A DNA stretch of 64,000 bases from a virus (IMGVR_UViG_3300037067_009025:1-64000), one strand, 5' to 3'; counted from the first letter of the stretch, positions 32,544-59,500 are shown. A program made the numbers and translations. Notes: a model not told the origin generated them from the letters alone.

Positions 32544-33050
32544 TTATGCGAAATATCCGCCTGGTTTGATTTCGGCATCAATACCATCCACAGAATCTTG
32601 AATATCCTGTAATGATTGAGCCGTATTCGTTGGCAAATTATCCGTCTTGGCCTTAACGGCATCAACGTTTGCGTCCACAGTGTCTACTTTTCCTTCAACT
32701 GTATTTACCGATGTTTGAACCGCATCCACTTTTCCGTCAACGGTATCAACCTTTGACTCGATGGAAGCAGTTTGAGATTTTACATCATCCACATCAGCAG
32801 CGGTAACTTTAACGGTGCGAACTGCACGGTCACCATTAACGACAGAAGAAACTTTCTCCTGCCAAAGACCAACCACGTCTGGTGTATATTCAAATGTATA
32901 AATCCCGTCGCCCTGTTCAGTAACCGTAGGGGCTGGTGATAAGGTGCTCCCATCAGGTTTACGAACAGCAACAACAAAATCGGAAACACCCGTGTTAAAT
33001 TCCACGGCAACGTAGGCCACCTTGCGTAATTTGTTTATGGTAGCTTCCAT
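32544..33050 (-). CDS. Ig-like plus heptad-repeat coiled-coil protein (decoration/whisker-like)
   Basis: GDGIYTFEYTPDVVGLW Ig-like strand, then KVDTVDG/KVDAVQT/SVNTVEG heptads. Confidence 0.5.
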   Translation of the reverse strand: MEATINKLRKVAYVAVEFNTGVSDFVVAVRKPDGSTLSPAPTVTEQGDGIYTFEYTPDVVGLWQEKVSSVVNGDRAVRTVKVTAADVDDVKSQTASIESKVDTVDGKVDAVQTSVNTVEGKVDTVDANVDAVKAKTDNLPTNTAQSLQDIQDSVDGIDAEIKPGGYFA

Positions 33051-33638
33051 GTTTCTATCTCCATTTCATTTTAGGCGAAGTGTCCGCCATTTGGTTTGTG
33101 ATTATTTTCGTCGCTAAAATAACCACCCTTAATAAGTTCCAAAAATTTAATTTTGATAACTTCAATAATTCTCCGAGCAGTCTTCCACATTATTTTTCTC
33201 CTCGGATATAATAATACAACTGAATAGTAGACGCCACAGCTTTAATTTCAATCTCAACACACGGCATCTCATCAGACATTTCAACGTAAGGAAATCCATG
33301 AATCCACGGGCCCCAGATTTCCATACAGCGCATTCTCACCAAATAATTTCCATCCTCAGTATAAAATGCAAATTTCTTAATGTCAAAGGACGGCTTTAAT
33401 TTGATACCCGTGGTATTTACTGAAACCGAATCAGAAAGGTAATGCGTTTGCATATACCCTCCTTATCGAGTCAAATAATTTTCCGCAGTCAAATAACTCG
33501 CAGGATATTGTTTCTTGCACATGTTACAAATAGCCCCAATGACTTTTCCAGACTTATCACAAATAGGAATCATTGTGCCACAGCACGAAATTTTCTTTTC
33601 ACTTTTTCTTTGCGGTCTACGATAATTCACGGCACACC

Positions 33639-33923
33639 TTATTTCTTGGCTGCAACTCTCTTCGTCTTAGAACTGCGCCCAATTTTCAGAGCACCTTTGA
33701 CGTAAGACATGTCTTCAGCCAGTGAACCAACTTTTTCTCTCAAACCTTTTTGCTCGTCGGAGAGATTTTTAATATTTTCATTCACATGATGCAAATCGTT
33801 TGTCATAATTTTGTGGAATGCCAAACGGTTCGCCACAAAAACAACAATGATGCCCACAAAATTGAGGACACCAATAACACCCGCTACGACCGCAAAAATA
33901 TTTTTTAATGATTCAAGTTCCAT
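33639..33923 (-). CDS. single-TM plus coiled-coil protein (holin-like candidate)
   Basis: Hydrophobic N-terminal helix, coiled coil, basic C-terminus. Confidence 0.4.
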   Translation of the reverse strand: MELESLKNIFAVVAGVIGVLNFVGIIVVFVANRLAFHKIMTNDLHHVNENIKNLSDEQKGLREKVGSLAEDMSYVKGALKIGRSSKTKRVAAKK

Positions 33924-33939
33924 TTTGAAACCTCCCCGA

Positions 33940-34443
33940 TTACGCTTCGTCGTATTGAATAATGTAATCAATGGCGTATTCACCGATGGAGGCTGTATTG
34001 ATTACTTCAAGTTGGAAAACCAGCCACGAAGTATAATCTCCGATATTGACCAGTTCACCATCCATAGAAATCGAATCATTCTCCGCAATATAATCGGTAA
34101 AAGAGACACGAGTGCCTTGAGCAGATTCTGTATCCACGGGCTGTTGATAGGTATTGACCACGGTGGAATTCACCTTGATTGTGAATCCAGGAGTGGGCAT
34201 TCCCGAAACATACCAGGCTTTAAAGTTGTTGCAGAAATTTGCAGGGGCCACATCACAACGACAACGAATCCAGGTCTCGAAAGAATAGGTCGTCCCAGTG
34301 TTCGGAATACGAACAGGATAATCCAATTTATCCACGATACCATCATCAATGGAGATGAGGTTGGAAATATTTTTGGCGACCTCCCCGAAATAACTTGCAG
34401 AGGCCCAGCCGTAATTTTGAACGACAGCAATTGTGGCAGCCAT
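33940..34443 (-). CDS. probable virion structural protein
   Basis: YPVRIP..YSFETW..AP.N..VFQLEV..QYDE pattern seen in phage structural genes. Confidence 0.5.
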   Translation of the reverse strand: MAATIAVVQNYGWASASYFGEVAKNISNLISIDDGIVDKLDYPVRIPNTGTTYSFETWIRCRCDVAPANFCNNFKAWYVSGMPTPGFTIKVNSTVVNTYQQPVDTESAQGTRVSFTDYIAENDSISMDGELVNIGDYTSWLVFQLEVINTASIGEYAIDYIIQYDEA

Positions 34444-34444
34444 T

Positions 34445-35182
34445 TTATTTTCTCTCTTTCAAAGGTTCTACATTCGGCTCGATATAATCACCGTCAGGAG
34501 AAATCCAATGACGGTCATCAGTTCCATCGGCACGAACACGGCCAATACAAATTCTATAAACGTAATGGGCAACAACAATGCCCTTACTGAGTCGCATTCT
34601 TTTTCGCTGAAAATAAAAAACTTTGTCGCCTGGTTCCACATCAAATTCACGAACCTCTACGCCATTCACGATGCGACCACGGCCAGCTATTAAAAAACTA
34701 AAAGGTGCCTCTACATGCTGCAAACTTTCCAGCGGGAGCACCAGTTGATTTTTCAAAACACAAATCGGAGATTTCTTATCCATTGAGATTCTCCTTAGAA
34801 ACAATTTTTAAAAGGTCACGGAGCTTCTGTTCACCCTGCAACAGAAAATATTTTGCTTCTGAAAACAAAATCATGGCGTCACGATTTTTCGTGGACACCT
34901 TGAGTAAATAGTCGTTGATTTTTTTCTGTGCTTCGAGATAACGAGAAACACGCTCGGGATTTAATCGCATTTTTTTAACCTCTCATCACTGTTCATTGCC
35001 TCACCGAACTGATTCAAGACCACCAGGAGCTTATCAACCAAAATATCCCGAGAGACATGTGGAACAGGAATCTGTTCCTCGTTCGAGATTGCGGGGCCGT
35101 CCAAAGACATCACATGCGTTTGAAGCAACCCATAAAGCAAATTTTGATATTCCTGTGCTAAGGTCAATTTATCAGCGGACAT
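34445..35182 (-). CDS. three short hypothetical ORFs at the head of the late operon (34961-35182, 34776-34970, 34445-34783)
   Basis: Overlapping stop/start junctions directly downstream of a late promoter motif. Confidence 0.5.
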
Positions 35183-35211
35183 GGTATCCTCACAATTTGA
35201 ATCTTACATAC

Positions 35212-35238
35212 TTAAATACGAATAACTGGGTAAAATAT
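35212..35238 (-). promoter_or_regulatory. candidate late promoter at the head of the virion operon
   Basis: ATATTTTACCC-agttat-TCGTATTTAA. Confidence 0.7.
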
Positions 35239-35304
35239 CATAGATTTTAGGCCAATAACCGAGGAAATACTCCCGCATTTTTATGCAAAAATGCAATAGT
35301 TAAT

Positions 35305-35424
35305 CTGTGACAGGACTGTATTACAGTCCTGGAACTGATTAACTACATACTGGTTACAGACCTGTCCTGTATTACAGAACTGTCCTGTATACAGACTGTA
35401 TTACAGTTCTGTAACTGTATACAG
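35305..35424. repeat. array of palindromic CTGTA(T)TACAG repeats
   Basis: CAGGACTGTATTACAGTCCTG (35311-35331), further copies at 35367, 35385, 35396 and 35415, plus degenerate ones. Confidence 0.9.
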
Positions 35425-35598
35425 GCCGAGTCCAGGGGGTTTAAGAAAAGACGGGAAAGTAAACCGTGGGTTGACCAAAACCGCACTAAATAAACTCGGG
35501 CCCTCTTTCTCTTCTTAAAGGCTGGACTCACTCCCCTCCGCTTTCAGCATTCGCTGAAACTCGGAGCGGGGCTGGAACAGTTCCTGGCTTAACCCTAA

Positions 35599-35660
35599 TT
35601 GTATGCTATCGTGCAACATATTGTAGGGAATCATACAATTCCTTGTATGGATTCATACAA
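35599..35660. repeat. alternating inverted TTGTATG/CATACAA repeats
   Basis: TTGTATG at 35599 and 35643; CATACAA at 35632 and 35654. Confidence 0.75.
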
Positions 35661-36619
35661 CCAGGGTGCATGAATTTTAAATGAGGTTCCATGCAAAAGC
35701 TCTGCCAAACGAGTGGCAAGGCTCGACGAGGAATGGTCTAAAAAGTCTGCCATCCCGTCTTGGACTCTCACAAATATGGAGCTTTTCTGTGCCAGGAAAT
35801 TTTCCCAGGATTTTTTGGAAAAGTCCTGGATGGATACCCGAGGTCAGGTCGCAAATGTCCACCAGCCACAGGACATTTCTCGGGAGTGGACTATTTGTTC
35901 ATTACTTGGTGAACATTCCAGTTGACAACTTGTTGACGACTTCAAAATTCCATTACTGGCAAAAGTTGTTCACAAAAATTCCAGTGCACATAGTGGGGCT
36001 ATGGAAAACAGAGACTTTTCAAACTGGCCAAATTTTTTTCAGTATTTTGGAACAGGGCGCACCAGTAAGGGAGAGGGTCAGGTCGGGATTTGTCCCGAGC
36101 CTGGGACTATCCCTTTCAGGAAATTTGACTTTTCCCAGGGGCTCTGTGGTTGAGCGTAGAAACAAGTGCCTACTGAAAGAAAACGCTTTCCCAGGTCATG
36201 GGGCCCCTTTAAATTATACTTATATTATAACATATACTTATATATAGACTTATATAAGGCCCTGCCCTTGAAAGAATAAAAAGCCCATGCTTTCCCAGCC
36301 TTTGGGCTGGCCTTGTGCTTTCCTGTTATTCTTTGGCCGTCCCTGGGCTGGGGCGGGTCACGTTTTGCCCCTGTTATCTTCTGGCCGTGAAGGGGTGAAC
36401 CTTTGGGACTATTGGCAGACCTTCAGGGATTGCCAGCCTTTGGGGCCTGGCTGGGGCTGGCTGGTGTTATCCCTGGGCCTTTGGCCTTTGGTGCCAGGTC
36501 ACGGGGTCAAGGTCAAGGGCTGGCCGTGTGCTGGGCCTATGGCCTGGGCCTGGGGTGCTGGGCTGCTATCCCCTGGCCTGGCCCTTTAAGCACGTGTTAA
36601 AATATCTTTGGCCGTGCCC

Positions 36620-36648
36620 TTGACAATTCAAAAGCGGGGTGCTATATT
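36620..36648 (+). promoter_or_regulatory. early sigma70 promoter (extended -10)
   Basis: TTGACA-17-TATATT with TG upstream of -10. Confidence 0.85.
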
Positions 36649-36672
36649 TTAATCAGAAGGGAGGGCCGAACG

Positions 36673-39196
36673 ATGAAAAGCCAAAGCGAACAAAGAAGGC
36701 AGGAAGCGGAAAGAATACTGGAAGGGATAGAAAAAAGCGGGCGGGTTTACTGGCTGGCCGTCTTAGTTAAAAGCGGGGCCCTTCTGGCAAGTGAAGCGGG
36801 TTATATGCTTTTGAATTGGGAGGGTTTAAAATGATTCCATTATTCAAAAACACTGAAGAGGCTTTAAAATACGGGGCCAGCATAGCGGGAAACGCTGAAG
36901 CCCTGGCAGAACTGAAGGCAGAACGGGCCCGCCTTGTCCTGGAAGGGCGCAAACTGCAAGAGGCTGAAGACTGGGCGGGAGCCCTGGCCCTGGCAAGCGG
37001 TCAAAGTCAATTCACACGGGAAGCCCTGGAAGCTGCGGGGCTTAAAGGATAAACACACCACAAACAAGGGAGGGTTAAAAATGGAACACGTCAAGCGCAT
37101 TGCAAACCAAAAAGCACATGAACACGTTTCACGGCGGGAACCGTTCAAAGGGTCAAACCTTTACGCCGAATATAGAACGGTGAAACAAGATTCTTTCAGG
37201 GAGGCAATCAGGGAGGCTTTAGGGGAACCGCTGGAAGTTTACGCCGTCTTTTCATACGGTGAACACTTTCCCATTTATGCCTTTAAGGCGGGCCAGTGGT
37301 TCAGGAATAAGGATAAATACAGCGTGACCACTTCAAAACATCAAAGCCAGGCCAGGCCCTGGGACGTGTCACACTTTACAGACCTTGACACGGACGGAAT
37401 AAAAGCGGTTTGCGGTCTTTAACTTTAACCTTTAAAGGGAGGTCTTAACATGGAAAAAACTTTCAAAGCTGAAACGGTTCAAGTCTGCAAAGTGGCCCGC
37501 CGTTTAGGGGTCATTGCCGAAAAGAAAACCCTTTGCCCTGGCTGCGGGAAAGTAAAACACTATGAAGCCCTGGCCTTTGAACTGCGGGCCCTTGAGGGCA
37601 GAATTAAAGAGGTGAACACACCCAAAGCGGACGGGCTGGAATGGTGCCAGGATTGCCAGGGCGGGAGGGGATAAGATGAAAGAATTCCTTTTCATGCTTT
37701 GGCAGATTTTTAAAGTGGGCCTGGTCTGTATAATCTGGGCCCTGGGGCTGGTAGTCAATGCCTGGGCCCTGGCCCTTTGCGCCCTTGTGGGGATTATAGG
37801 CTTAACAGTGGCCTTTTTTGGGTCACTGATTTTTTTCAATATTATCATTCTTGCAATGGGTTTAAAGTAAATTGTCATAACTTTGACACGTGTTAAGTCT
37901 TAGGACAAAAGGGAGGTCATAAAATGGAACTTTGCACACACGGCAAACCGATAACGGGCTATTGCCAGCCCTGCGCCCAGGCCATAGACGGCGGGGACAA
38001 TATGCTTTTAATGGTCAAGATTCGGGAAGTATACGGGAATAAAAGGGTTTATGTTCAATCCTTCCAGGCTGGGGCTTTAAAGGCTTTGACTGGACGGGAA
38101 ACCTTGACGGATTCAGATATAAAGGCACTTAAAAGCCTGGGTTATTCCTTCCAGGTGCTGGGGAATAGTATTTTATAGGGTTTTACGGGGCAAGGAATAG
38201 GAAAGAATGAGGCGGGGAACACGTCCCGCCCGCATAAACCCAGCCCCTGGGCTATTCTTTCCAGTCCCCTATAGTCAAATAACCCTTTAAAACCCTGGTT
38301 TTCTTTATCCTATATACTGGGGCAAGCTGGGGACTTATTCACGGACTTTTTAACCTGGGAGGGCTTAACTATGGCAAGGCAATCTTTAACGGAATTCATA
38401 AGGGCCAATAGGGCCGAACTTGACGGGGCCATAAAGCGGGCAGTCCCGAACATTGGCAGCCTAAACGATTCAGACCGTAAAGACTGGGTTTTAAACGATG
38501 AAGGGCTTTACAATTGGGCCAGGTCTGAAGGGGTGAAGGTTTAACCCTGGCCGTCTTTTAACAAGGGAGGCTTTACAATGGAAGCGCAAAAAATGACACT
38601 GGCAGAAGCCAGGCAGATTTTAGGCAATCGGCCCCGCTGGGAACTTTTGCAGATAAAGCGGGCCTTGTCCATGCTGGAACTTTTGAACACCCCAGAAGAG
38701 GCCCAAAGGCTGGAAGCTGCAAGGCTTTTACTGGGTGCTATGCCTAAGCCCTGGGCCTAAGCCTGGGGAACCTTTAAACCGTGGGAGGGTCTTTTTATGC
38801 GGTCTTTAATCGCTGGGGCCCTTGTGCTGGCCCTGGGCCTGGCCTTCACTGGGCCAGCCTGGGCGGGCAAGGGCGGGAAGCTGAAAGCCTGCAATGATTC
38901 AAGCGGGCGGGTCTACTACGTGCCAAAAGCTGGGAGCGGGAAGGGGCTTTACTGGGGCAGCAGTCCGAAGACGGCCCAGCCCCTAAAAGACGGGCAGCGG
39001 GTTTATATCATACCAAAGCGGGGCAAGCGGTAAAGCTGGCCCCTGGCTGGGAGGGGTGAACATGCGCTATTATGTCCTATTTTATGCGGGCCTTGTGGCC
39101 TTCTGGGTCTTCCTGGGCTGGCTGGTCTACGGGGCAGCCCTGCGGGCCGTGTCCCAGGCAATGGGCCAGGCTGGGGCCATGCTGGGGACTTTTTGA
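36673..39196 (+). CDS. cluster of about 10 small early hypothetical proteins (36673-36834, 36831-37052, 37081-37422, 37450-37674, 37676-37870, 37924-38178, 38371-38544, 38578-38760, 38797-39033, 39062-39196)
   Basis: Nearly all are preceded by a GGGAGG RBS; sizes typical of host-takeover genes. Confidence 0.7.
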
Positions 39197-39206
39197 GCGG
39201 GTGACC

Positions 39207-39235
39207 TTGACACGCTGGGCCCTGGGTGTTATACT
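39207..39235 (+). promoter_or_regulatory. sigma70 promoter
   Basis: TTGACA-17-TATACT with TG upstream of -10. Confidence 0.8.
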
Positions 39236-39899
39236 TGAAGGGGCGGGGCCCTGGGTGCCTGGGGTGTGCCTGGCAGCGGAAAGCGTTTTCCTGGGAAGCG
39301 TTTTCACGGGGACGGGGTGACTTTGGCCGAACCTTGAAGACGGGCCCCAGTGCTAAAGTGTCCAGTAAATGTCAAATTGATTTTAAGGGTTCAAACTGAA
39401 AATTGCCCCGCTGCAAAAGTGTATCAGTTTAAGGGTGTTTTAGGACTTTGACGTTTTGGCCGATTTTTCGCTTGTAGATTCAAAAACTGGGGATTTTTCT
39501 GGGGAAAATCTGGTATTTTCACAAGTGACCCGAAAACCCTTTGCCCCAGGTTATTCCAGCGTGTTTTTGCGGGTGTTTTTCGGCCCCTGGCGGGGCCCTG
39601 GCGGGCAGCTTTTAAACACCTGGCAGCATATTATAGGATGATGACGGGCCAAAGGCTGGGACAAAGCCCGTGACATTTAAGGCATAAAATTTTGATAATT
39701 TGATGACGTTTTCAGCATAAGGGCGGGCAGAATGCGGGACAAAGGCACGGACAAAAGGCGGGACAATTCGGGAGGGATTGAACGGTGAAAGCGTTTTCTC
39801 AAAAATCCATTCGGGCCAGCCTTCAGCAGAAGAGGTCAAGGGGCCCCAGAATTCCAGGGCCTGGCCCTGGCAGACTGAAAAATATTTTTTGCCTGGCCC

Positions 39900-39928
39900 T
39901 TGTTTTTTGGGCTGGGGTGTGCTATACT
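39900..39928 (+). promoter_or_regulatory. extended -10 sigma70 promoter for the AAA/VWA operon
   Basis: TTGTTT-17-TATACT with TG upstream of -10. Confidence 0.6.
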
Positions 39929-39984
39929 TTATAATGCAATAGGGCAGCACGAACAAACAAACCTTAAACCTGGGAGGGTTAAAA

Positions 39985-40980
39985 ATGACGCCGAAAAAAT
40001 TACAAGAGATTTTAAAAGACGCCGTAAAGCACGGTGAACAATTGCTTATCGTGGGCCCGCCTGGCATTGGCAAAACGGATATTGTCAAGGCGGTATGCAA
40101 GGACTTAGGGGCCGACATGATTATATCACACCCCGCCGTGTCCGACCCCACGGACTACAAGGGTTTACCGTTCAAAGTGTCCGACAATTCACACGCCGAA
40201 TTTTTGCCATTCGGGGAAACCTGGCGGGCTATTCAAGCGGACAAAGTGACATTATGGTTTATTGATGACCTGGGCCAGGCTTCTGAAGCGGTTCAAAAAG
40301 CCCTTATGCAATTGCTTTTAGGGCGGAAGTTAAACGGTCACAAGTTAAGTGACAAAGTGGTTTTTTGCGGGGCCACTAATGACATAGGCCATAGGGCAGG
40401 TGTCACGGGACTTTTGGAACCCGTAAAATCCCGCTGGGATTCAATCGTGAACCTGGAACCGTCACTTGATGACTGGTGCACGTGGGCTTATGGCAATGGG
40501 CAGCCTGCGGAATTGATTGCATTCCTGCGGAACTGTCCCGAATTGCTTTCCCACTTTGAACCGACCAAAGCACTGATAAACCAGCCTTGTCCCAGAACGT
40601 GGGCCAGTGTTGGCCGTAGAATTGCCAGGAACCAGCAGGACTTTGACTTGATTGCTGGGGCCGTGGGGAAGGGTGCAGCCCAGGAACTTTTAGCATTCCT
40701 GGAACTGGCAGCAAAGGCCCCGTCCCTGGACGCTATCTTGATGAACCCGAAGACTGCGCCGATTCCTGAAAAGCCAGCCCTTCTTTATCTTGTGGCTGCG
40801 GGTTTGTCCCAGCGTGCTAAGAAGGATAATTTTAATCGTGTCTATCAATACCTTTTGAGGCTTCCCCAGTCATTCAGAACTATGGCAATCAAGGACGCTA
40901 TCAATCGGGACAATTCCTTGACGGGCACGGACACTTTCACCGCTTATGTCACGTCTGCGGAAGGCAAAAGCATTTTATAA
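39985..40980 (+). CDS. MoxR-like AAA+ ATPase
   Basis: Walker A GPPGIGKT, Walker B FIDDLGQA, GATN, KSRW, CPRTW. Confidence 0.9.
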   Translation: MTPKKLQEILKDAVKHGEQLLIVGPPGIGKTDIVKAVCKDLGADMIISHPAVSDPTDYKGLPFKVSDNSHAEFLPFGETWRAIQADKVTLWFIDDLGQASEAVQKALMQLLLGRKLNGHKLSDKVVFCGATNDIGHRAGVTGLLEPVKSRWDSIVNLEPSLDDWCTWAYGNGQPAELIAFLRNCPELLSHFEPTKALINQPCPRTWASVGRRIARNQQDFDLIAGAVGKGAAQELLAFLELAAKAPSLDAILMNPKTAPIPEKPALLYLVAAGLSQRAKKDNFNRVYQYLLRLPQSFRTMAIKDAINRDNSLTGTDTFTAYVTSAEGKSIL

Positions 40981-41010
40981 ACCGTTTTGAAAACCTGGGA
41001 GGGTTTGAAC

Positions 41011-41856
41011 ATGGACAAAATTTTGACACGTGCCGTATTAGTGAAGGTATCAATCAGCCAATTCAATCCGAAAAGGCAGGACGGGAAAACCACGGCGGAA
41101 GTCCTGGCCGACAAAGGCGCAAAGTCTACCGCTGGGGTGTGGATTAAAAACCTGGTAGACCCTAAAGCCCTTGAGGCTATCAACACGCTGGCCCAGGCTG
41201 CACGGGCTGAACATTACAGGCTTTCGCTTCCCTGGGCGGATGAAGGCTGGCGGATTCTTCCCACGGCCATTTATATGAAGTATCAAGAGGCCATGAGGGA
41301 AAAACGGACGGGATTTTCCTGGGAGGTTCAAAAATTCCTGGATAAATATCCCCAGTATATTGAAGAGGCAAAGGCAGCCTTAAACGGCATGTTTAACCCT
41401 GGGGACTATCCGACCCCTGAACAAGTCAAGGGAAAATTCGGAATGAAAATTGACGTGGCCCCGCTTCCCTGCGGAAGTGATTTTCGGGTGTCCCTGGGAA
41501 GTGATGAACTGGCAGCAATGCAGCAGGATGTTGACCAGCGTGTTAAGGAAGCCACGGCCCAGGCAGTAAAAGACCTTTGGAACCGCCTGGCCCAGCCAGT
41601 AAAAGCAATGGTCAATCGTTTATCGGAACCCGATTCCATTTTTCGGGATTCACTGATTGATAATCTGCGGGATATTATTGACCTGGTGCCGTCCCTGAAT
41701 GTCACGGGTGACCCTGCACTTGACGCCGTGGCCCAGGAATGCAAGGTCAAACTTTCGGGCTTCAAGGCTGAAGACCTGCGGAAAGATAAAGCCCTGCGGA
41801 AGAGTGCAGCGGAAGAGGCGGACGCTATCTTGAAGAAAATGGAGGGCTATATCTAA
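41011..41856 (+). CDS. DUF3150-like helical protein
   Basis: LSLPW..G.RILP, FNPGDYP, PLP..DFR motifs; family that travels with MoxR/VWA in mobile elements. Confidence 0.55.
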   Translation: MDKILTRAVLVKVSISQFNPKRQDGKTTAEVLADKGAKSTAGVWIKNLVDPKALEAINTLAQAARAEHYRLSLPWADEGWRILPTAIYMKYQEAMREKRTGFSWEVQKFLDKYPQYIEEAKAALNGMFNPGDYPTPEQVKGKFGMKIDVAPLPCGSDFRVSLGSDELAAMQQDVDQRVKEATAQAVKDLWNRLAQPVKAMVNRLSEPDSIFRDSLIDNLRDIIDLVPSLNVTGDPALDAVAQECKVKLSGFKAEDLRKDKALRKSAAEEADAILKKMEGYI

Positions 41857-43088
41857 TGACCCCGACACTTTCAAAAATTGACAAGGCAATGAACACCCTG
41901 GTTTTAGACCAGCCCTTTTTTGCCGTGTTGGCAATGCGCCTTGAACAAGTGGAAACCAAAGAAGTCCCGACCTTTGCCACGGACGGAAAACGTCTTTTAA
42001 TCAATCCCGATTTTTGCGCTTCATTATCGGACGGGGAAGTTGTGACCGTCCTGGCCCATGAAGTTTTGCATTGTGCCCTGGGCCATATATGGCGGGCCCC
42101 TGCGGGTGCAGACCTTCAGACCTGGAACCTGGCAATTGATAATGAAACGAACTGGGAACTTGAAAAGGTAAACCGTCAAAATAGGGGTGTCCCGCCCTTC
42201 CCGTGGCCGTCCTGCGGGAAAGTCATGGAAGACCGCTTTGAGGGCTGGGCTGCGGAACGGGTTTATAAAGTCCTGGCAGAAGAGAAGGCCCAGCAAAAGG
42301 AAGACCAGCAGGGCCAGCAAGGCCAGGGAGGCGGTAAAGGGCAGCAGCAGAAGGCGGGAGGCCAGGGGCAGAATAAAGGGAAGGGGCAGCAGGGCCAGGG
42401 GCAGCCTGGACAAGGCCAGCAGCAGGGCTTTGGTGACATTATCCCAGTAAAGAAGGATGACCAGGCCCAGCTTAAACAGGAATGGGAACGGGCCGTTATT
42501 CAGGCGGAAAAATGTGGGCGGGAGCGTGGGGATATTCCAGGGGCCGTCAAGGAATTGATTCAAGAGGTGACCAGCACTAAAGTTGACTGGCGGAATATCC
42601 TGCGGGACTTCTTATCTACCACGGCAAAGGAAGACTGGAACTTTGCCCGACCGAATGCCCGCTTTGAAGACACTGGCTTTTTAATGCCGTCCCTTTACAA
42701 TGAACGGGCGGGCCACTTAGTTTTTGCAATTGATACCAGCGGGAGCACGTCAAGCGAATTGCTGGCCGAATACATAGCGGAAGCCCAGCAGGCCCTTGAT
42801 GAACTGAACCCAGAAAAATTGACCCTTGTTTATTGTGACGCTAAGATTCAACACGTCCAGGAATACGAACCAGGGGACAAGATTGAACTGGAAACCTATG
42901 GACGGGGCGGGACGGATTTTCGGCCCGTGTTCAATCATTTTAACAAGGCGGATGAAGCCCCTAAAATCGTGGTTTACTTGACCGACCTGGAAGGGACTTT
43001 CCCAAAGGAAGCCCCAGAATATCCCGTCTTATGGGTGACCGAAAACCACGGCCAGGAAGTCCCATTCGGGGACTTGATTGAAGTATAA
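41856..43088 (+). CDS. DUF2201-type metallopeptidase plus VWA-like domain protein
   Basis: TFATDG, AHEVLH (HExxH), Q/G-rich linker, IDTSGS MIDAS, GRGGTDF, LTDLEG. Confidence 0.9.
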   Translation: MTPTLSKIDKAMNTLVLDQPFFAVLAMRLEQVETKEVPTFATDGKRLLINPDFCASLSDGEVVTVLAHEVLHCALGHIWRAPAGADLQTWNLAIDNETNWELEKVNRQNRGVPPFPWPSCGKVMEDRFEGWAAERVYKVLAEEKAQQKEDQQGQQGQGGGKGQQQKAGGQGQNKGKGQQGQGQPGQGQQQGFGDIIPVKKDDQAQLKQEWERAVIQAEKCGRERGDIPGAVKELIQEVTSTKVDWRNILRDFLSTTAKEDWNFARPNARFEDTGFLMPSLYNERAGHLVFAIDTSGSTSSELLAEYIAEAQQALDELNPEKLTLVYCDAKIQHVQEYEPGDKIELETYGRGGTDFRPVFNHFNKADEAPKIVVYLTDLEGTFPKEAPEYPVLWVTENHGQEVPFGDLIEV

Positions 43089-43559
43089 ACCAGCAGCCAG
43101 GGGCCCAGTAAGGGCCCCAGGAATTGGAGGGTTAAAACATGTTAGTCTTTTCAGGGGATAGAAAATCTTTGACGGTCAAGGCTGGAAAGTTTTTCCAGAA
43201 AATTTTTGGCCATGCCTTTATCAAAATTGCTTTATGGGACGGATATAAAAGCCTTTGTTATTTTGAGGCGGGAACTTTCCGAATTGCCGTCTATTAAAAG
43301 GGAGGTGTAAACATGGCAGACTTTCGGCGTATTGTTAGGAAGGTCTATAAAACTACCGTGGTTTACAAGCTGGATGTTTTACTGGCTGAAGAAAAACGCT
43401 GGGCCCGCAAAGCCACGATTGCCAATACTAAACTGCGGGCAGTCCGAAAAAAGATAAACACCCTGGCCCAGGAACTGGCGCAAAAGACCGTAAGTGTCCA
43501 GTAAGGGCAGCCCGTGGGAGCGGGTTCAAACTGAAAACTTTTAAGGGAGGTATCAAACT

Positions 43560-44261
43560 ATGGAACCAATTTTTGAGGAAGTTTTGAAGGGCCATAAAAT
43601 TGAGATTCATTCAGACGATGACGGTATCAATCCCCGCCATGAATGGGATAATATGGGGACAATGGTTTGCTTTCATGGCCGTTATAACCTGGGAGATAAA
43701 GACCACGGATTCAAACAAAGCAATTATGATTCCTGGGCGGAACTTCAGAAGGCCATTATCAGGGAGCACGGGCCTTGTTTGATTGCCCCGCTTTATCTTT
43801 ATGACCATTCAGGTATCACAATTTCAATGGGTGAATTTTCTTGCAAGTGGGATTCTGGACAAGTGGGCTTTATCTTTGTCCCGCATTCCAGGATTCGCAA
43901 GGAATATTCTTGCAAAAGAATTTCAAAGAAGACCCTGGAACGTGCCAAAGGGTGCCTGGAAAGTGAAGTCAAGGTATACGATGACTATTTAACGGGAAAC
44001 GTTTACGGATTCAAAATTTTTGATGACGTGGACGGGGAAAATGAAATTGATTCATGCTGGGGATTCTTTGGGGACTATGAAGAAGGGGCCCTGGCTGAAG
44101 CCCGTTCAATCGTGCATTCCAGGACGGACACTTTTAGGAATGCCGTTAGAGAAAAACTGCGGGAAGTGGAAAATCAAAAGAAGGCAGAACTGGCGGACAA
44201 GCTGGACGCTGCACTTGAACACCAGCAGGAACTTAACAAGGAAGTTTTACAGGCAGCTTAA
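43560..44261 (+). CDS. conserved phage/MGE hypothetical protein
   Basis: PLYLYDHSGITIS..WDSGQVG..YLTGNVYGF..DSCWGFFG motif family. Confidence 0.65.
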   Translation: MEPIFEEVLKGHKIEIHSDDDGINPRHEWDNMGTMVCFHGRYNLGDKDHGFKQSNYDSWAELQKAIIREHGPCLIAPLYLYDHSGITISMGEFSCKWDSGQVGFIFVPHSRIRKEYSCKRISKKTLERAKGCLESEVKVYDDYLTGNVYGFKIFDDVDGENEIDSCWGFFGDYEEGALAEARSIVHSRTDTFRNAVREKLREVENQKKAELADKLDAALEHQQELNKEVLQAA

Positions 44262-45146
44262 TTCTAAAATACGGCCAGGGTGTCCAGTAAAGGCCAGGTC
44301 ACAAAAGGCGGTTCAAAATGAAATATAAAATCCAGTATAATGTTGGTAAAGTAAAATATCTTGTTAGTTTTTCAGACGGAACAAAAAGGCACAAGGACGG
44401 AAGCGAATTTTGGGATATTAAATGTTTTAAGTCAAAGGATAAAATGAATAAGTTTATCCTGGGTTTAAATAAGCAATAACTTGAAAGGTTAAAATCATGC
44501 TACAATTAGTCAAGGTGAATGCCATAAAACCCGAATACAGAATTGAGGGCTTATCCGCTGAACAAGTGCTAAGGATTCATTGCGCTTTAAAGGCCGTGCC
44601 ACAAAAGCCCCTGGAAGTGGAAGTCATGGTGAACTGTTTGAACCAGGACATAAACCGTTTGAACAAGTCTGAAGGGAGGGAATAACATGTGCTTTGAAAT
44701 GGGACATAGTGCAGGATGTTTGTGTAATAATTCGGGACGTGAAAAGTCAAAAGCCCAGGGATATAATCCAGTATCCGAACATGGAAAACTGCGGTTAATT
44801 CCAGCCAATGAGCCCAGGAATATTTGCTGGAACTGCGGAAAACTTTTTTCGGAAGACCCAAAACATTTTCTTCCAAAGGAAGTGGGACAAAAACAATATT
44901 TATCCTGTAATCATTGTGGAAAGGTGAACCACTTATAAATTTCTTTAAACACGGAGGGGCCACTATGACCGCCACGGCGAAAAAGGATATTGTTTCAGAA
45001 TTGAAAGTTGTTTCCTTGCAGATTGAGTCTATTGAGGCCCAGCTTAAAAATACGTTCGACCTGCATAAGAAAACAGAACTGAAGGAACAATTGAAAAACA
45101 AGTGGGCCCTGGTTGACAATTTGCTGGATAAATATCCGCCCAGGAC

Positions 45147-45175
45147 TTGACAAAAGTCTGGAAATATGGTATACT
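45147..45175 (+). promoter_or_regulatory. sigma70 promoter
   Basis: TTGACA-17-TATACT with TG upstream of -10. Confidence 0.8.
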
Positions 45176-46167
45176 TATCTTAACGGAGGAACGAATGAAT
45201 AGTCAAGACCGACAACGAATTCAAGAAATGATTGATGCAGCCAAAGCAGGTTCAGCGCAAGTCATTAAGCTGGATGAATTCGGGGTTTTGATGTTCAGGA
45301 ATATTTACAATGAAGCCACGATTGCGGGATTGACCATAACGATTCTTGAACGTGGAAAGATTTTTCAAATTGAGCGGACATAGGGAGGTTAATATGACCT
45401 TAAAAGACTTGATAACAAAAAGCAATTTAAGTAAAGCAGACCTGGAAAAGGAAATTCTTTTCAGCAATGATGAAGAATTAAATAATCTTCATTCAGAAGC
45501 GCAAATTGCCGAACTGGGTAACACTGGAAAATTGGTTATCTATCCCTTAACAATGAGCAGAACGGAAATTTAAGATGAAGACCCGCTTTCGTGCCAGCAT
45601 ATATCTGGATGTTTTCATTGAAGGGGATAAACCCCTTGAAGAAGCACGGGCGGAAGCCACGGCACAAGTCAATGAACTGGTGCAATCAATCTCAGAAGTT
45701 GGCTTCAGGGAAGACTTGAACTATAGCAATCCTTATGTGGGAGGCGTGGCCCACTATGAACCAAAAAATTTGCTGAAGCCTCTGGACAAGGACATTTAAA
45801 ATGTTAAGGATTAAATTGGATATTACAGACAAGGATGAACACAAACTTATAACACACCTTGAACACGTGCAATGGGCCATTGCTGGCGGAGAAAAGGCTG
45901 GCCCAGGCTGGGAACTGGAAGGCGAAAATGAAAGTCAAGACGATTCTAAAAAAACTTAGGACTGAAAATCTTTTCGGAAAACCCGTTAAGATTCTTAAAG
46001 TGTCCAGTAAAGCCCCTAAAGAATTAGAGGGTAAAACTGGAACTTTAACAAACCCATTTGCGGGATTCGAGGTTGAGGGTATTGGAATATTCCTGGATAA
46101 CAATGAGCCCGATGTTTGCAATCTGGGCCTGGAAGATGATATTGAAATAATTGGTTAATTTGTCCGC

Positions 46168-46221
46168 AGCGGGGCCTCCTCCCTAACCCAGTCTCCTCCC
46201 AGTCTGGGTTTTGGCCCCGCT
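46168..46221 (+). ncRNA. structured RNA/terminator displaying two anti-SD (CCUCCC) motifs, cuckoo-like
   Basis: AGCGGGGCC/GGCCCCGCT stem, UCCUCCCU bulge, AACCCAG/CTGGGTT stem, apical CCUCCC loop. Confidence 0.6.
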
Positions 46222-46374
46222 AATATTTTAATGACCAGTAATCACGCACACGGAGAACAGGTTTAAATGGAAAAGGAACTTAACAATAGATGTATTGAAT
46301 GTGGTTGCGTATTAGATGAGGGAGAATATGACCTTTGCGAAGCATGTAGAGAAAGACTGGATAATGACTAACCC

Positions 46375-46403
46375 TTGACAAAATTAGAAAAGTATGCTAT
46401 AAT
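46375..46403 (+). promoter_or_regulatory. consensus sigma70 promoter
   Basis: TTGACA-17-TATAAT with TG upstream of -10. Confidence 0.9.
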
Positions 46404-46414
46404 TAAAGGGCTTT

Positions 46415-48355
46415 ATGAACCTTGCGGACATGCTGAAAGAGATTAGATTTTTTGGAGTGAAGCCCACGCTTGATTCTATCGAGCAGGTAAAATCTCCCAG
46501 GTTAAGGTTAAAATTGAGAAGGCTATTTGAGGAAGCCTTTCATATTTTGAGAGTTGGAGATTATCGTTATCAGAATATCACGTGGCCCGATACTACCAGG
46601 CCCAAAGGAGAAAATCAAAATGGACAAGATTGAAACATCCTACAAAGGTTACAAAATTGAACACGATATTGATTATGATAAAAAAGAGAAGTGGGTTTTA
46701 AAGGATGACGATGACACTTCTGTTTATGAACATGCGTCCCTGGCTGCCGTGAAAGAATATGTGGACAGGTTGAACAAAAAAGGATTCAAGACGTTCACGA
46801 TTCTTTACGATTCTGGATGGGGAAACAATAAAGGATATATTCGTCATACGGTCACATCCATTGATGACCAGGGTGATTATTGGATTAAAAATGATGAAGG
46901 CAGGCGTCAAAAGATTCGTCCTGGGAATGCCGTGGTAGATTCTCCCGAGAATGCAACACTCATTCAGGAGATTCGAGCGGTTGAGGCCGAAGAGGATAAG
47001 CTCCAAAAAAGACGCCATGCTTTGGAGAAAAAGCTCAAGAGACACGGAAAGAACGATGACTAAGTGGAACTACTACGTCAACGATTTTGAGTTTGAATGG
47101 CCCGATGGTGACGGTGGGTATACTTATCTGAAAGCAAATTTTCAGGTGAATGCCTGCCGTTATCTCTTTGGTGATGACGCCGATGGAAACCGTGGCGTCT
47201 ATGTCACAGAGAGAGAACTTGTAAACATTGAAGTCAAAGATGACACGGGCAATCCTATTGAACTTAAACCAGGCATGGAAGAACATCTTGCCGATAGAGT
47301 CAGAGAAGAAGGCAGCGATTTAGAATAACACGGGAGGGAGTTAATGAATAGGCCCCTCAGAAATCCCGAATTGACCAAAAAAGAGCGAGTCGCTCAAAAA
47401 CGTCAAGCCCTCACCCAGGAACTGTATACGGTCTTTACCCGTTCATACGAAATGGATAGGGCCTGGGGTGTGCCTCAAAGAAAAGCATTTGAAAAAGCCT
47501 TTCAGCTTCTGAACAAACGAGTAGATGAGTTGAATAAGCAGAAGCCCCAGGAATCTTCCTTTGTTATCGGTTGTCGTGGGGAAGTGAAAGACCTGGTTCT
47601 TAAACGTGTCGCAGAGCTTGAAGGACAGGTAAACAAACATGACGGAAAGAAAACAGCCAAAATACACTCACATAGAAATTAAGTTGTGGGTGTTTCGTTT
47701 TTCATTTTACAAATTAAACCATAAATGGACAATCAGATTTGAAATGTCCAGCGGGTGGGAATAATATGTGTTTACTGAAAGACCATTCAAAAACTTGTAA
47801 GTGTCATTTGACCACAAAATTTAAGGAAAAGAAAACTATCTGTTTTGTTTGCAAGAAAAGTGTGGATAAGGTTCTTGATTTGTGTGCTACCAGTAAAGAC
47901 CTATGTAGCATTGAGTGTGAACGAACGTTTTGGTTGGATATTCTTTATTAAGGAGCCTCTTCATGTTAAAACTGAATTTAAAAAGTATGGGAGAGTTATT
48001 TACCTCTGCCCAGATTGAGGATTTTATCACCAAGAATTTCTTTAATCTGAAAACCAGTGATGTAATCAAACTCCGTGCTTTGATAAAAACACTCCACGAA
48101 AAAAGTATTAAGGCTGAACTCCTCTGGGATAGTAACTTCAAGGATAAACAAAGTATTTTCTCCCTGGCAGTTTTAAGGTTGAAGCAGGTGTATGGGGACG
48201 ATATTCATGTGGCCTGTATTGAAGATTTGGGAAGGCTCACAGATAAACAATATGATTCCTTCTGGGAATTTTGTAGGAAAATCTCTGAGTATAAAAGCTA
48301 TCAGAAAAGTATGTCATTACGGGCGAAAAGAAAATACTTGACAACGCACAAATAA
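46415..48355 (+). CDS. run of hypothetical proteins (46415-46633, 46620-47063, 47056-47328, 47344-47682, 47963-48355)
   Basis: Coupled ORFs with RBS; no recognisable domain. Confidence 0.55.
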
Positions 48356-48366
48356 TGTGGTATATT
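48338..48366 (+). promoter_or_regulatory. sigma70 promoter, TTGACAACGCA subclass
   Basis: TTGACA-acgcacaaataatgtgg-TATATT. Confidence 0.85.
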
Positions 48367-48721
48367 TAAAGGAGACCAATGAAGCTAATCTACTCTGACA
48401 AGATAAGTGGTAGTTGCAATAAATGTCATGGCCCCTTTACTGGCGGTTTTCTTTCTTTAGATGAAAACGGCACGGTAACGGGTATGCTGTGTAAAGAGTG
48501 TCGGCAGACTGAAGAAGTAGAGACCAATAAAACTGTCACGCTCACCGTGAAGAAGTTGCAAGGTTCTTTTATGCAATTTATTCTGAAGCAAGACCTATAC
48601 CAGGTTGTGACTTGCAAAAATTTAATTTTGAAAAATGATATTTTAACAGGCGAAGAAGTGAATCGTTATATTCAAAATCCGAATGTAGCGGTCACTATTA
48701 GGCATTAAGAGAGGAACTCTC

Positions 48722-51313
48722 ATGGCTTTAAGATGTGAACAATGTCCATTTCATAAGCAATCCCGCAGCGGTTTTCTGTGCACTAACTTTAATGAGGGCG
48801 TTGGTAAAAAGGACGCTAAAGTTATGTTGGTGTATGATGCCCCCTTCTCTTCTGATGTCTTATCAGATAGGTTTGCCTCTGATGACCAGTATAACACTCA
48901 GATGTCACTCTATTTGAGCAGACTGGGACTGAAGCTGGAAGATGTTTATACCACTTCTTTCGTGAAATGTTTTATTGCGGATAAGAAAAAGAAGCCCACA
49001 AAAGGTATCAAGCAGAAGTGCGTGGATTTATATCTTTCTCAGGAAATCAAAAACATTAAGCCAAAAGTAGTTATTCTTTGCGGGAGTATGGTAACAAAAT
49101 GGTTTTTGCCTGAGTCTCAAACATTGTCCCAGATTGTGGGACAGTCGTTCTATTCCAATGAATATAAAACCTATTTTATTCCAATCTTCGATTTGTTTTA
49201 TCTGGCGAATTTTCATAAGCAATCTATCCAGGCACGGAAGATGGACAAAGCCTTTGCTAAAGTCAGTGTTCTTTTGAACGGTAAAGAGACGAATCCGAAT
49301 AAGCCCGAGAAGATTGTATACTTCAGCGATTGGGATAAGCTGAAGTCATTAAAATCTGTGGTTACATGCGACGTTGAAACGACGGGTCTTGATGACTTTG
49401 AAGACCGCATTGTTACGGTGGGTGTAGGCGACAACGAAACCCGAGTAGTTTTTGATGTGTCCGATTGCTCTGGCTATCCAAAAATTCTTGCATTGCAAAA
49501 AGAAATGGATGCTGCACGCAAAGCCAATACAGACACAGAGGCTGAGAATGAAGCAATAAAGGCTGGCAATAAAAATAAGAAAGCAAAAGATAAGCTCCCG
49601 TTTAAGTCTTTACCTTACACGGATGACTACATCGAAGAGCGACGCAAAAAGATAATTGAAGTGGTGGGTCAGACCTTCATACCACAAATTGTTGCCAAGA
49701 TGGTTCCAGAATTAAAGAAGCGGAAACTGGTTTTCCAAAATGGTCTCTTTGATTTAAAGATGTTTCTACGTGATGGCTTTGATTTAACGGATAGTTTTGC
49801 TGGGGATACCCGTCTTCTCCAATATTTAATTGACCCACTTGGAGCCACGGCATTAGGTTTTATGGTGCAGCTTTATTACGGGGTCAATTATAAGGAAGCC
49901 ATTGACCGTGGAAATATTCTTGACATGGATGGAGACGAACGTAAGTATTATTGTAACGAGGATATTTTCTACACCTACAAGCTGTTCAGTGATTTGTATG
50001 CGAAGATTAAGGCCCAGGGCAGCGAGCTTGCTCACGGTATCAAAATCAATCTGGCCAAAATTTTGGCGCATACAGAACGGCGAGGAATTAAAATTGATTT
50101 AAAGAAAGCCGACCAATTGGTTCAGTTTTATACCGAACAAAAAACAAAGACTGAGAAAAAATTCAAGGACAAGTTTAGTCTGTCTCCCGAATTCAATTTG
50201 AACTCACCAAAACAATTGAGCAAATTGCTGTATGAAGATTTACAATTGCCTGTGTTGCGTAAGACGAAAGAAGGAAATCCGTCTACCGATGAATACGCAA
50301 TCAATATGCTGGCAAGTCGAAGACCCTCCCTGGATGTTTTAGTGGATTACAGAACCTTTAAGGGTCACATTGAGAAGTTGGAACTTTACAAACGAAACAC
50401 AAGAGCAGATGGACGCCTGAGAACTCAATTTGATATGTTCGCTCAGGATTCGGCCCGTCTTATGTCAAAGAAGCCGAATATCCAAAATGTTCCGAGGGAT
50501 AGTCTTTACGGGATTTCTGCAAAAGACATTGAGAACTTTATGACCCAATATGGGTGGAAGCCCGATATTAAGGGAATCTTTGTTGCAGAGACTGGTTATT
50601 GTTTTGTGAAATATGATTACAAGGCCATTGAATTCCGTGTGTGGATTGAACTGGCAAAAGACCCAAAGGGCACTGAATTTATTCAGAGTGGCCGTGATAT
50701 TCACGCTTACATTGCCAGTCAGTTTTACCGTGAGGATGAAGCACTTTTCCTGGATAAGAAAAACGAACCGTATCAGGAAAAAAGAAACCGAGTTAAGGCT
50801 ATCGTTTATGGTTCCATGTATGGCCGAACCCCCGAAGGTATCGTTAAAGAACACGGCGGGACAATTGAAGAAGCCGAACAGATTCAAAGAATTTTCTTCA
50901 GTATCTGTCGTGTTGGATACTTGTGGATGAAACAAGTTGAGCAGCAAGTTATGAAAGACCATCATTTGAAAACTCCTTTCGGGGCTCATCGAGTATTCCC
51001 TGATATTGAGTTGGCCATTGGTAATAAGAAGGATGAAATTCTCCGTGAAGCAAAATCATTTATTGTTCAAAGCTGGGCTGCGGAGCTTGGATTTATCGGG
51101 ATGTCCCGAGTTTGGGCAAAGATTCGGGAATTGGGTCTGGATGCGTTTTATGTTCACCAGATTCACGATGCAGGGATTATCGAGGTTAAAGTAGAACAGG
51201 CCGAAAAGCTACAAAAGATTGTCAAGACCTGTGCCACGAATCCCTACAGCAAAATGAAAATCCCGTTGGATGTTGATATGAAGGTTGGACATTCATGGGC
51301 TGAAGTTGGATAA
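48722..51313 (+). CDS. polA: family A DNA polymerase with N-terminal UDG family-4-like domain and 3'-5' exonuclease
   Basis: CxxC..C..KC UDG-like cysteines; CDVETTG, QNGLFDL, YCNED exo motifs; DYKAIE (A), KAIVYGSMYG (B), IHDA (C). Confidence 0.95.
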   Translation: MALRCEQCPFHKQSRSGFLCTNFNEGVGKKDAKVMLVYDAPFSSDVLSDRFASDDQYNTQMSLYLSRLGLKLEDVYTTSFVKCFIADKKKKPTKGIKQKCVDLYLSQEIKNIKPKVVILCGSMVTKWFLPESQTLSQIVGQSFYSNEYKTYFIPIFDLFYLANFHKQSIQARKMDKAFAKVSVLLNGKETNPNKPEKIVYFSDWDKLKSLKSVVTCDVETTGLDDFEDRIVTVGVGDNETRVVFDVSDCSGYPKILALQKEMDAARKANTDTEAENEAIKAGNKNKKAKDKLPFKSLPYTDDYIEERRKKIIEVVGQTFIPQIVAKMVPELKKRKLVFQNGLFDLKMFLRDGFDLTDSFAGDTRLLQYLIDPLGATALGFMVQLYYGVNYKEAIDRGNILDMDGDERKYYCNEDIFYTYKLFSDLYAKIKAQGSELAHGIKINLAKILAHTERRGIKIDLKKADQLVQFYTEQKTKTEKKFKDKFSLSPEFNLNSPKQLSKLLYEDLQLPVLRKTKEGNPSTDEYAINMLASRRPSLDVLVDYRTFKGHIEKLELYKRNTRADGRLRTQFDMFAQDSARLMSKKPNIQNVPRDSLYGISAKDIENFMTQYGWKPDIKGIFVAETGYCFVKYDYKAIEFRVWIELAKDPKGTEFIQSGRDIHAYIASQFYREDEALFLDKKNEPYQEKRNRVKAIVYGSMYGRTPEGIVKEHGGTIEEAEQIQRIFFSICRVGYLWMKQVEQQVMKDHHLKTPFGAHRVFPDIELAIGNKKDEILREAKSFIVQSWAAELGFIGMSRVWAKIRELGLDAFYVHQIHDAGIIEVKVEQAEKLQKIVKTCATNPYSKMKIPLDVDMKVGHSWAEVG

Positions 51314-57690: not shown

Positions 57691-57692
57691 AC

Positions 57693-59173: not shown

Positions 59174-59500
59174 GCGAGGATTTTCCTATGCAGGTTACTT
59201 ATTGCGATTTGTGTGGACTCCCAGTTCACGGAAAACGGTATTACTTGGTGGTGGTTGCAGATGACCCCAGACAGGGTGCACATAGACCACCGCAATCGAA
59301 GGAGCAATATGAGATAGACGAATCTTGTTATGCTCTTTTAGGTAAAATCTTTGATTTGAAAAAGGCCAAAATTGCCGAAATCAAAGAATATCTTGATGAA
59401 CAATATAAGCTGCCCTCGAATCGCAAAAAGAAATCCAAGTCCAGAAAAGGAACCAAAATCTATTTCCATGTTCAACCAAAGAAAACTGGGAGTAAGTAAC

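Follow-up and report, generated by a model that had tools for sequence, protein, structure and literature searches.

The DNA analysed here, referred to as the window, is a stretch of 64,000 nt (IMGVR_UViG_3300037067_009025:1-64000) that forms the first part of an 85,949-nt record of an uncultivated virus. On its + strand, between positions 36145 and 45690, lies a block in which the trinucleotide CTC occurs only once, together with 63 copies of GAG. This CTC-void block is located directly to the right of the divergence point between the − strand and the + strand genes; it is an early operon transcribed by the host polymerase, and it is probably the first DNA exposed in the cell.

The first 130 nt of the record recur at its end (85820-85949), which indicates a circular or permuted assembly of about 85.8 kb; the record itself is classed as linear. 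Structural genes (major head, tape measure and tail) occupy the − strand between 35.8 and 8.8 kb, and all the genes from about 36.6 kb, wrapping round to 8.5 kb, are on the + strand. The latter part encodes a family-A DNA polymerase with a UDG-like N-terminus, a UvsX-like recombinase, the terminase, the portal and, at genome position 82243-84096, a fused primase-helicase similar to gp4 of phage T7. A gene for an HldE-like kinase crosses the record junction, and a search with its protein returned matches among metagenome proteins only. A search for tRNA genes found none. Near-identical DNA was present in runs from groundwater, the environment from which the record probably comes, and in landfill, freshwater and wastewater runs; none of the listed runs is recorded as RNA.

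The early operon comprises about 25 genes, most of them orphans, and nearly all carry a GGGAGG 7-9 nt before the ATG; its promoters are of the extended −10 sigma70 type. All the features described below are on the + strand. The block begins with a leader (36145-36654) that has no predicted promoter upstream and consists of an AT-rich TATACTTATAT repeat (36215-36258) followed by a stretch rich in GGCC and CTGG. Only weak, non-significant structure was predicted for the leader RNA (z −1.4), and no Rfam family was detected between 35.0 and 47.5 kb. The first sigma70-type promoter (36620-36648) has the form TTGACA-17-TATATT with a TG, and it is followed by a GGGAGG and by the first early gene at 36673. 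From there to 39934, about 12 small orphan genes of 44-113 aa follow each other, nearly all with the arrangement GGGAGG-N7-9-ATG. Searches against protein families gave no credible match for any of them, and only a weak one, to a PHROG whose function is given as unknown, for the 113-aa gene at 37081.

An internal promoter of the same type (39207-39235; TTGACA-17-TATACT, with TG) has copies of GAAAGCGTTTTC just downstream. These repeats were observed downstream of early promoters (39277-39311 and 39787-39799), with an inverse copy close to the domain's left edge (36178-36190), and they may represent an operator. The sole CTC of the block (39798-39800) sits in one copy of the GAAAGCGTTTTC motif, where it ends a GAAAGCGTTTTCT copy whose inverse is the one at 36178-36190.

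Downstream lies a conserved three-gene module (39985-43088) coding for a MoxR-like AAA+ ATPase (39985-40980), a DUF3150-like protein (41011-41856) and a DUF2201 metallopeptidase/VWA protein (41856-43088). These are the only genes of the block with family matches, and the only part of it common to all the relatives described below. A 233-aa protein encoded at 43560-44261 belongs to no Pfam family and has 2,559 homologues at about 50% identity. Its model was of high confidence (predicted local distance difference test, pLDDT, 94.5), and the only matches from Foldseek and a wide structural search were between its C-terminal helix and coiled coils; its N-terminal alpha/beta domain had no match in solved structures, and a profile search of the PDB returned nothing. 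Pfam, PHROGs and PADLOC identified no nuclease, toxin, antitoxin or anti-restriction family among the proteins of the block, and no strongly acidic DNA-mimic candidate was seen.

Towards its right end the operon contains another predicted internal promoter (45147-45175; TTGACA-17-TATACT, with TG). CTC returns in the operon tail (45691-46230), with two copies in coding sequence and four in the early terminator (46168-46221), a stable hairpin of −31 kcal/mol (z −4.5) with a U-rich run behind it. The terminator exposes UCCUCCCU and CUCCUCCC as unpaired sequences, which are complementary to the early GGGAGG sites and form the first CTC cluster past the void. A perfect sigma70 consensus promoter (46375-46403; 12/12 plus TG) is situated 150 nt past the terminator, and the genes downstream of it are CTC-normal. 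The inner border thus consists of the terminator hairpin, an open reading frame of 34 codons and this promoter, all within about 250 nt, and no kb-scale repeat-rich injection-stop region like the iss of T5 was found there. Contigs from a wastewater run, whose RNA-Seq label is a guess, covered the early domain at a depth of 12-25, compared to 0-3 on the adjacent structural genes (33000-49000 considered); those of the same guess-labelled run span 36184-36520, in the leader, and 45879-46259, ending past the terminator.

Extent and strand specificity of the CTC void

When CTC was counted on the + strand, it was found at positions 36142, 39798 and 45691 only, leaving one copy in 9,546 nt against 70-104 expected. 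The initial annotation of the window, made from the sequence by eye, had described this single copy between 36145 and 45690, which the count confirmed, and had set it against about 150 expected copies, a figure that assumed a uniform frequency of 1/64 and had to be lowered to the range given here. The gaps between successive copies in the block measure 3,656 and 5,893 nt, and the next longest CTC gap in the window measures 806 nt. Compared with all the 3- and 4-mers of the 85.8-kb genome the CTC gap of the block is the most extreme, the expected number of such gaps being 4e-25. CTC is common on both flanks, as had also been noted, with 6-25 copies per kb to the left; to the right the recovery is gradual, with 2 copies in 45-46 kb and then 7-16 per kb.

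The void extends over all three reading frames and over non-coding DNA, in agreement with the first description. None of the 281 Leu codons of the block is CTC, and its 1.8 kb of non-coding DNA contain no copy where 13-22 were expected; for the 510-nt leader the expectation was 5.5-8.6. When synonymous codons were shuffled within the block, so that its CTC-less usage was kept, 46 ± 5 cross-codon CTC were produced, with a minimum of 29 in 500 shuffles, whereas recoding of the block with the codon usage of the genome produced 96, with a minimum of 65. Amino-acid and codon composition, for which the initial annotation had proposed a codon-shuffled control, therefore do not explain a single observed copy where 46-96 are expected. 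Between 43.0 and 45.7 kb, where the GC content (0.42) equals that found elsewhere in the genome, CTC was likewise absent against 15-21 expected copies. The void runs unbroken through the change in GC content at 43 kb and is therefore no effect of composition; a foreign origin or the base composition was rejected as its cause for the same reason. The CTC void is independent of codons and of base composition.

The block has compositional traits of its own. Its GC content is 52% up to 43 kb and 41% elsewhere, words of the CCTGG, CCCTGG and GGCCC type are enriched 5-10 fold (CCWGG, 117 copies; GGGCCC, 19), and its codon usage is distinct, with Leu CTG, Ala GCC, Arg CGG and Gly GGG.

The complement of CTC behaves differently. 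GAG had been described as reduced yet present, often within GGGAGG, and 63 copies were indeed counted in the block against about 137 expected, 22 of them within GGGAGG and 28 as Glu codons. The ratio of CTC to GAG, 1:63, is the top outlier in strand asymmetry among word pairs (p 9e-15 versus the sense-strand share of the genome). The reported scarcity of CGAG and TCGA was borne out as well (0 and 1 copies, respectively). On the sense strand, the reduction of GAG depends on the base that follows or precedes it: GAG[AT], or GAGW, occurs 7 times against 79 expected and CGAG 0 times against 22, whereas GAG[CG] remains at 56 against 57. CCTC and CTCC are both missing from the block, in which GAGG occurs 45 times and GGAG 33 times.

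All 16 NCTCN contexts, each with 3-10 expected copies, are gone from the block. Among these, [AG]CTC[AG], which pairs with at most 3 nt of the Shine-Dalgarno (SD) sequence, shows 0 copies against 26 expected, and GCTCA 0 against 8. Because the 16 contexts, the three frames and the non-coding DNA are all void, the unit that is read consists of 3 nt of nucleic acid and not of a codon. For CTC, selection acts on one strand, the sense strand, regardless of frame or coding status. Other word pairs of the block are also found mainly on one strand (CATC/GATG, 1/26; GTCG/CGAC, 0/12). The strand-overlap index of the block equals that of control segments, so there is no general extra strand polarisation, and a universal anti-Type III design, in which every word would be kept in one orientation, was rejected on this basis.

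Word avoidance in the domain, the genome and the relatives

The CTC void is part of a wider purged domain. Thirteen test words were chosen as missing from the 37-45 kb core, any word containing CTC or GAG being excluded; they include CAAC, CATC, GTCG, TCGA, CCAAG, CTGTG and GAATC. Their combined density drops at about 36.25 kb from about 5 per 250 nt to zero, and rises again by degrees between 45 and 46.7 kb. On its left, the domain (about 36.15-46 kb) has a sharp edge, at about 36.2 kb, many words being last seen at 36071-36156. Judged by the block's own Markov expectation, several words are purged there on both strands: ACAG/CTGT (14 versus 66 expected), CAAC/GTTG (12 versus 58), CCAA/TTGG (47 versus 126) and CTGA/TCAG (51 versus 110). 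CTGAC, CCAAG, CCACC and AGCCG are each at zero where 11-14 copies were expected. In all, 15 four-mers and 50 five-mers are missing from the block, compared to 0-2 in control segments of equal length.

In the whole genome (the window with L010 and L011), the palindromes CTAG, GATC, GTAC, CCGG and CGCG are at zero, with 170-320 copies expected for each; GGWCC and GCSGC are also at zero, and the genome is devoid of 43 of the 64 six-base palindromes. GGGCCC (46 copies), TGGCCA, GAATTC, CAATTG, AATATT, TTTAAA and AAATTT occur at or above expectation. Palindromes that contain the CTC or GAG word are purged like the others, with no CTCGAG and 2 GAGCTC against 9-14 expected. This genome-wide purging of palindromes shows that deletion of nuclease target words is a general strategy of the phage. 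Three layers of it are superimposed: palindromes are purged throughout the genome, asymmetric words in the early domain only, and CTC on one strand.

The void has been maintained during divergence. A freshwater strain (L015), about 3% diverged, differs between 36.1 and 40.1 kb by 110 substitutions, several indels and a 149-nt replacement. No CTC was created by these changes, whereas random substitutions of the same types would create 4.2, and both existing copies, including that at 39798, were kept.

More distant relatives were obtained by a search with the DUF2201 protein followed by contig look-up. Neither megablast against phage records nor scans of viral contigs that used the DUF2201 protein and the DNA polymerase as queries detected a close relative. 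The relatives retain the architecture of the locus, with a divergent junction followed by early genes that include the three-gene module. CTC was counted on the sense strand of each early region, with the expectation taken from the comparison with the rest of the same locus. The initial annotation had proposed repeating the analysis in related phages, and the depletion held in four of them. In L002 and L003, both at 64-66% identity in the DUF2201 protein, CTC is the most depleted trinucleotide, 3-4 fold below expectation (18 versus 76 and 14 versus 40, respectively), and in L007 (24 versus 46) and L004 (35 versus 66) it is the second most depleted, by about 2-fold. The early regions of L006, L008 and L009 show no CTC depletion. 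GAG is little or less depleted in L002 (85 versus 103 expected) and L003, and GAGW is mildly depleted in L002, L003 and L004. In L002, the depletion comprises both WCTC (13 versus 44) and SCTC (5 versus 32). The early genes of L002 and L003 mostly have ribosome sites of the AAGGGGG or AAGGA type, without GAG, and those of L009 and L006 use GGAG.

Over 13-20 kb, the palindromes absent from each relative are CCGG in L002, GATC in L003, and GATC, CGCG and GCGC in L007. As the palindrome purges differ among relatives that are all depleted in CTC, the reader of CTC is not the restriction enzyme of one particular host. The graded nature of the depletion suits a cost per site, as with mRNA cleavage, better than an all-or-none cutting of DNA. 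Judging from these sequences, the relatives have a CTC reader in common despite their different restriction repertoires, and its effect is graded.

Two groups of genes outside the block were also observed. An RNA ligase and a tRNA nucleotidyltransferase (CCA-adding enzyme), located at 62489-63745 of the window and 8869-10260 of L010, suggest repair of nuclease-damaged tRNA and point to an RNA-level conflict with the hosts. In the replication module (window 57025-60094), a dATP/dGTP diphosphohydrolase-like domain, a GT-B glycosyltransferase and a weak nucleoside-deoxyribosyltransferase-like protein are encoded side by side, and these genes may form a nucleotide-modification pathway.

Possible readers of CTC

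Taken jointly, we consider it probable that the block is a stealth early domain in which selection acts directly on the nucleotide sequence and, in the case of CTC, on one strand only. As this selection is confined to the sense strand and is blind to frame and coding, the most likely target of the CTC reader is nucleic acid in single-stranded form and of sense polarity. Within this frame we tentatively favour, at somewhat less than an even chance, that the early mRNA, or the displaced sense strand, escapes a single-strand nuclease reading CUC or CTC. A more specific version, possible and somewhat more doubtful, is that the hosts of this lineage commonly possess a nuclease, active in the first minutes of infection, which recognises nothing but CUC in single-stranded RNA (or CTC in single-stranded DNA that has been displaced).

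The sequence of events would be as follows. An endoribonuclease cutting at CUC would act on the early RNA, and a host MazF-like or other abortive-infection toxin would be its likelier source than a shut-off RNase of the phage. This RNase would be active during the first minutes of infection, until an early protein neutralised it. CUC-less early mRNAs would escape cleavage, much as mRNAs engineered to lack ACA survive E. coli MazF, and the phages would have responded by writing their whole first operon without CUC. That the reader is an RNase, to whom it belongs and that the domain acts or enters first are what we infer from the base sequence. Such an RNase fits a void that is confined to the sense strand, disregards the frame, extends over untranslated DNA and is echoed as a graded depletion in relatives. 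It is also in keeping with the RNA-repair genes of the phage and with the layout of the operon, which has consensus sigma70 promoters, uniformly strong ribosome sites and a strong terminator, and the coverage of the block by the wastewater run labelled RNA-Seq gives a hint in the same direction. Sequence-specific RNase toxins that recognise 3 nt are known and take part in phage defence (PMC5408214, PMC13107127).

Several points weigh against a CUC-reading RNase. No CUC-specific RNase was found in the literature searched, and we know of no CUC-specific endoribonuclease or toxin; no nuclease was recognised among the block proteins either. The void matches the predicted transcription unit inexactly, starting 510 nt before the first predicted promoter and ending about 500 nt before the terminator, and four CUC are kept unpaired in the terminator hairpin. 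The genes behind the perfect promoter at 46375 are unpurged, so that an RNase would require delayed entry of that DNA or regulation of the promoter. Moreover, other words are purged on both strands of the same domain, which means that DNA-level selection also acts here and could cause the CTC void too. Finally, the purge of GAGW on the sense strand (7 versus 79) means that the void could be the sum of several purges.

The last two points lead to the alternatives at the level of DNA. In orientation-dependent restriction, which we regard as unlikely, the first-entered domain would keep GAG-containing sites in one orientation and so escape enzymes that need inversely oriented sites (Type III, Type ISP or MANTIS-like). 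One orientation is indeed emptied and the other kept, for CTC and GAG (1 versus 63) as for CATC/GATG and GTCG/CGAC, and the domain also has a sharp left edge and the both-strand purges typical of restriction avoidance. The extension of the void over a leader without a predicted promoter fits a DNA-level cause, and later entry of the DNA behind the 46375 promoter would readily account for the CTC-normal genes there. However, the known enzymes of these classes read 5-6 bp, and the loss of 16 out of 16 NCTCN contexts would need an unknown orientation-sensitive DNA reader of 3 nt; the strand polarisation of the block is no higher than in controls, and the depletion is graded and common to relatives with different restriction footprints. 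An asymmetric restriction site in the simple form proposed by the initial annotation was therefore not upheld. A less probable alternative is a composite purge, without any single reader of CTC, made up of GAGW/WCTC and CGAG/CTCG on both strands and of CCTC/CTCC/GCTC on the sense strand. For half of the CTC contexts the complement is purged as well, as the counts of GAG[AT], CGAG and GAG[CG] given above show, and GAGW is also mildly depleted in three of the relatives. Such a composite needs as many rules as the single-word reading and leaves GCTCA (0 versus 8) over, whereas the completeness over 16 contexts is most simply one rule; in L002, WCTC and SCTC are both depleted and GAGW only mildly. 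Still less likely is a hygiene of the template strand, in which the virion DNA would be marked at GAG (or CTC) and a GAG-free early template could be read at once by the unmodified host RNA polymerase. The template strand has only one GAG in 9.5 kb, and the replication region carries the diphosphohydrolase-like, weak deoxyribosyltransferase-like and glycosyltransferase genes mentioned above. Nevertheless, the lack of five 4-bp and 43 of the 64 6-bp palindromes argues against a broad protection of the DNA by modification, palindromes containing the word are not spared (CTCGAG, 0; GAGCTC, 2), and the genes behind the sigma70 promoter at 46375 are CTC-normal. In addition, no DNA transglycosylase or methyltransferase turned up among about 50 proteins scanned, which correspond to about a third of the genes.

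Two further explanations are very improbable. One, also put forward in the initial annotation, is that CUC able to pair with the roughly 25 GGGAGG sites of the 10-kb mRNA is avoided, so that CCUCC would be present only in the 3' terminator hairpin, as a regulatory element. It accords with the 22 GGGAGG, with the lack of CCTC and CTCC beside abundant GAGG and GGAG, and with the unpaired UCCUCCCU and CUCCUCCC of the terminator. This avoidance of anti-SD pairing is largely refuted by the loss of [AG]CTC[AG] (0 versus 26). The RNA of the block shows no marked loss of structure either (mean z −0.25, compared to −0.75 and −0.81 elsewhere), a shift so small that a general selection for unstructured early RNA was likewise rejected. 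Nor does the depletion in relatives follow SD sequences of the GAG type: L002 and L003 are depleted with sites mostly without GAG, and L009 and L006 use GGAG and are undepleted. The other, to which we give the least credence, is that CTC is the recognition trinucleotide of the T7 gp4-like primase-helicase or of the host DnaG, and that the sense strand is kept free of priming sites. Primases of the DnaG and gp4 type read a trinucleotide on one DNA strand (GTC in T7, CTG in E. coli), and the phage encodes a fused primase-helicase; but there is no evident benefit in clearing priming sites from one strand of one domain, and the genome-wide strand pattern of CTC is tied only to the direction of transcription.

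Three other candidates were rejected. Avoidance of Rho sites was discarded by reasoning, CC being enriched and only TC depleted; avoidance of a CRISPR protospacer adjacent motif was also discarded by reasoning, because it would be symmetric, and TTC, CTT and CAT are undepleted. Marks of the DarT type at TNTC were rejected as TATC and TTTC are present in the block.

Relation to known systems

Avoidance of words by phages is usually read as the footprint of restriction enzymes that see double-stranded DNA. Palindrome avoidance of the Type IIP kind is present genome-wide in this phage and is symmetric, whereas the CTC void is asymmetric and local. The removal of 3 nt from one strand over an early operon, kept under divergence and echoed in relatives, points instead to a reader of three single-stranded bases, a kind of conflict between phage and host that has so far not been described from sequence.

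The early domain resembles the first-step-transfer DNA of T5 and BF23 and the leading region of Autographiviridae, in that it is a stretch of about 10% of the genome, with small orphan genes and strong sigma70 promoters used by the host RNA polymerase, from which nuclease target words are missing while present elsewhere in the genome. In the T5-like phages and Autographiviridae, only the sites in the first-entered DNA matter (PMC10644984; PMC12455610), and the pre-early and early genes of T5 both have sigma70 promoters and differ only by their entry (PMC10644984). The unpurged genes behind the 46375 promoter would be explained if that DNA enters later, as in T5. The difference is that the extreme missing word of the present phage has 3 nt and is missing from one strand only. 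The suggestion of the initial annotation that the block may mark the first-transferred end of the genome gains some indirect support from the thirteen test words, chosen independently of CTC and GAG, which are lost together throughout this domain from a sharp left border, and from the normal CTC content of the genes behind the 46375 promoter. No trinucleotide void was found in the first 9 kb of T5, its first-step-transfer DNA. On the + strand of T5 (L012), no CTCC occurs for 4.7 kb (4589-9285), with similar gaps for TCCA and TCCT, a modest signal.

Strand-biased depletion of sites, as in T7 with EcoP15I, is a documented escape from the Type III, ISP and MANTIS enzymes that need inverted pairs (bioRxiv 10.64898/2026.09.23.753747), so that both leading-region site avoidance and strand-biased depletion have precedents (PMC10644984, PMC12455610, bioRxiv 10.64898/2026.09.23.753747). 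The likeness is that an asymmetric word is removed in one orientation and kept in the other. However, the sites of those enzymes have 5-6 bp and the bias covers the whole site set of the phage, whereas here a trinucleotide is removed in all its contexts and the removal stops at the border of the early domain. By the tests run, the early domain is a member of none of these classes, be it T5-like first-entered DNA, Type III-type strand bias or the ACA-less messages discussed next.

In the literature searched, no report of a trinucleotide-free phage operon was found, and to our knowledge no phage operon has been described as purged of an RNase word. With its superimposed layers, this genome is an unusually clear example of layered stealth. 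Should the reader prove to be an RNase toxin, word voids in early operons could offer a general, culture-free inference of toxin specificities and of the pairing between phages and defences. RNA in which the word is missing escapes an RNase with a 3-nt site irrespective of reading frame, as seen with ACA-less mRNAs and MazF (PMC5408214; PMC9102682), and the pattern described here is the expected look of a natural CUC-less operon. The ACA-less messages were engineered; if the favoured reading is true, the early operon would be their natural counterpart, and the specificity of a defence nuclease could be discovered from phage sequence alone.

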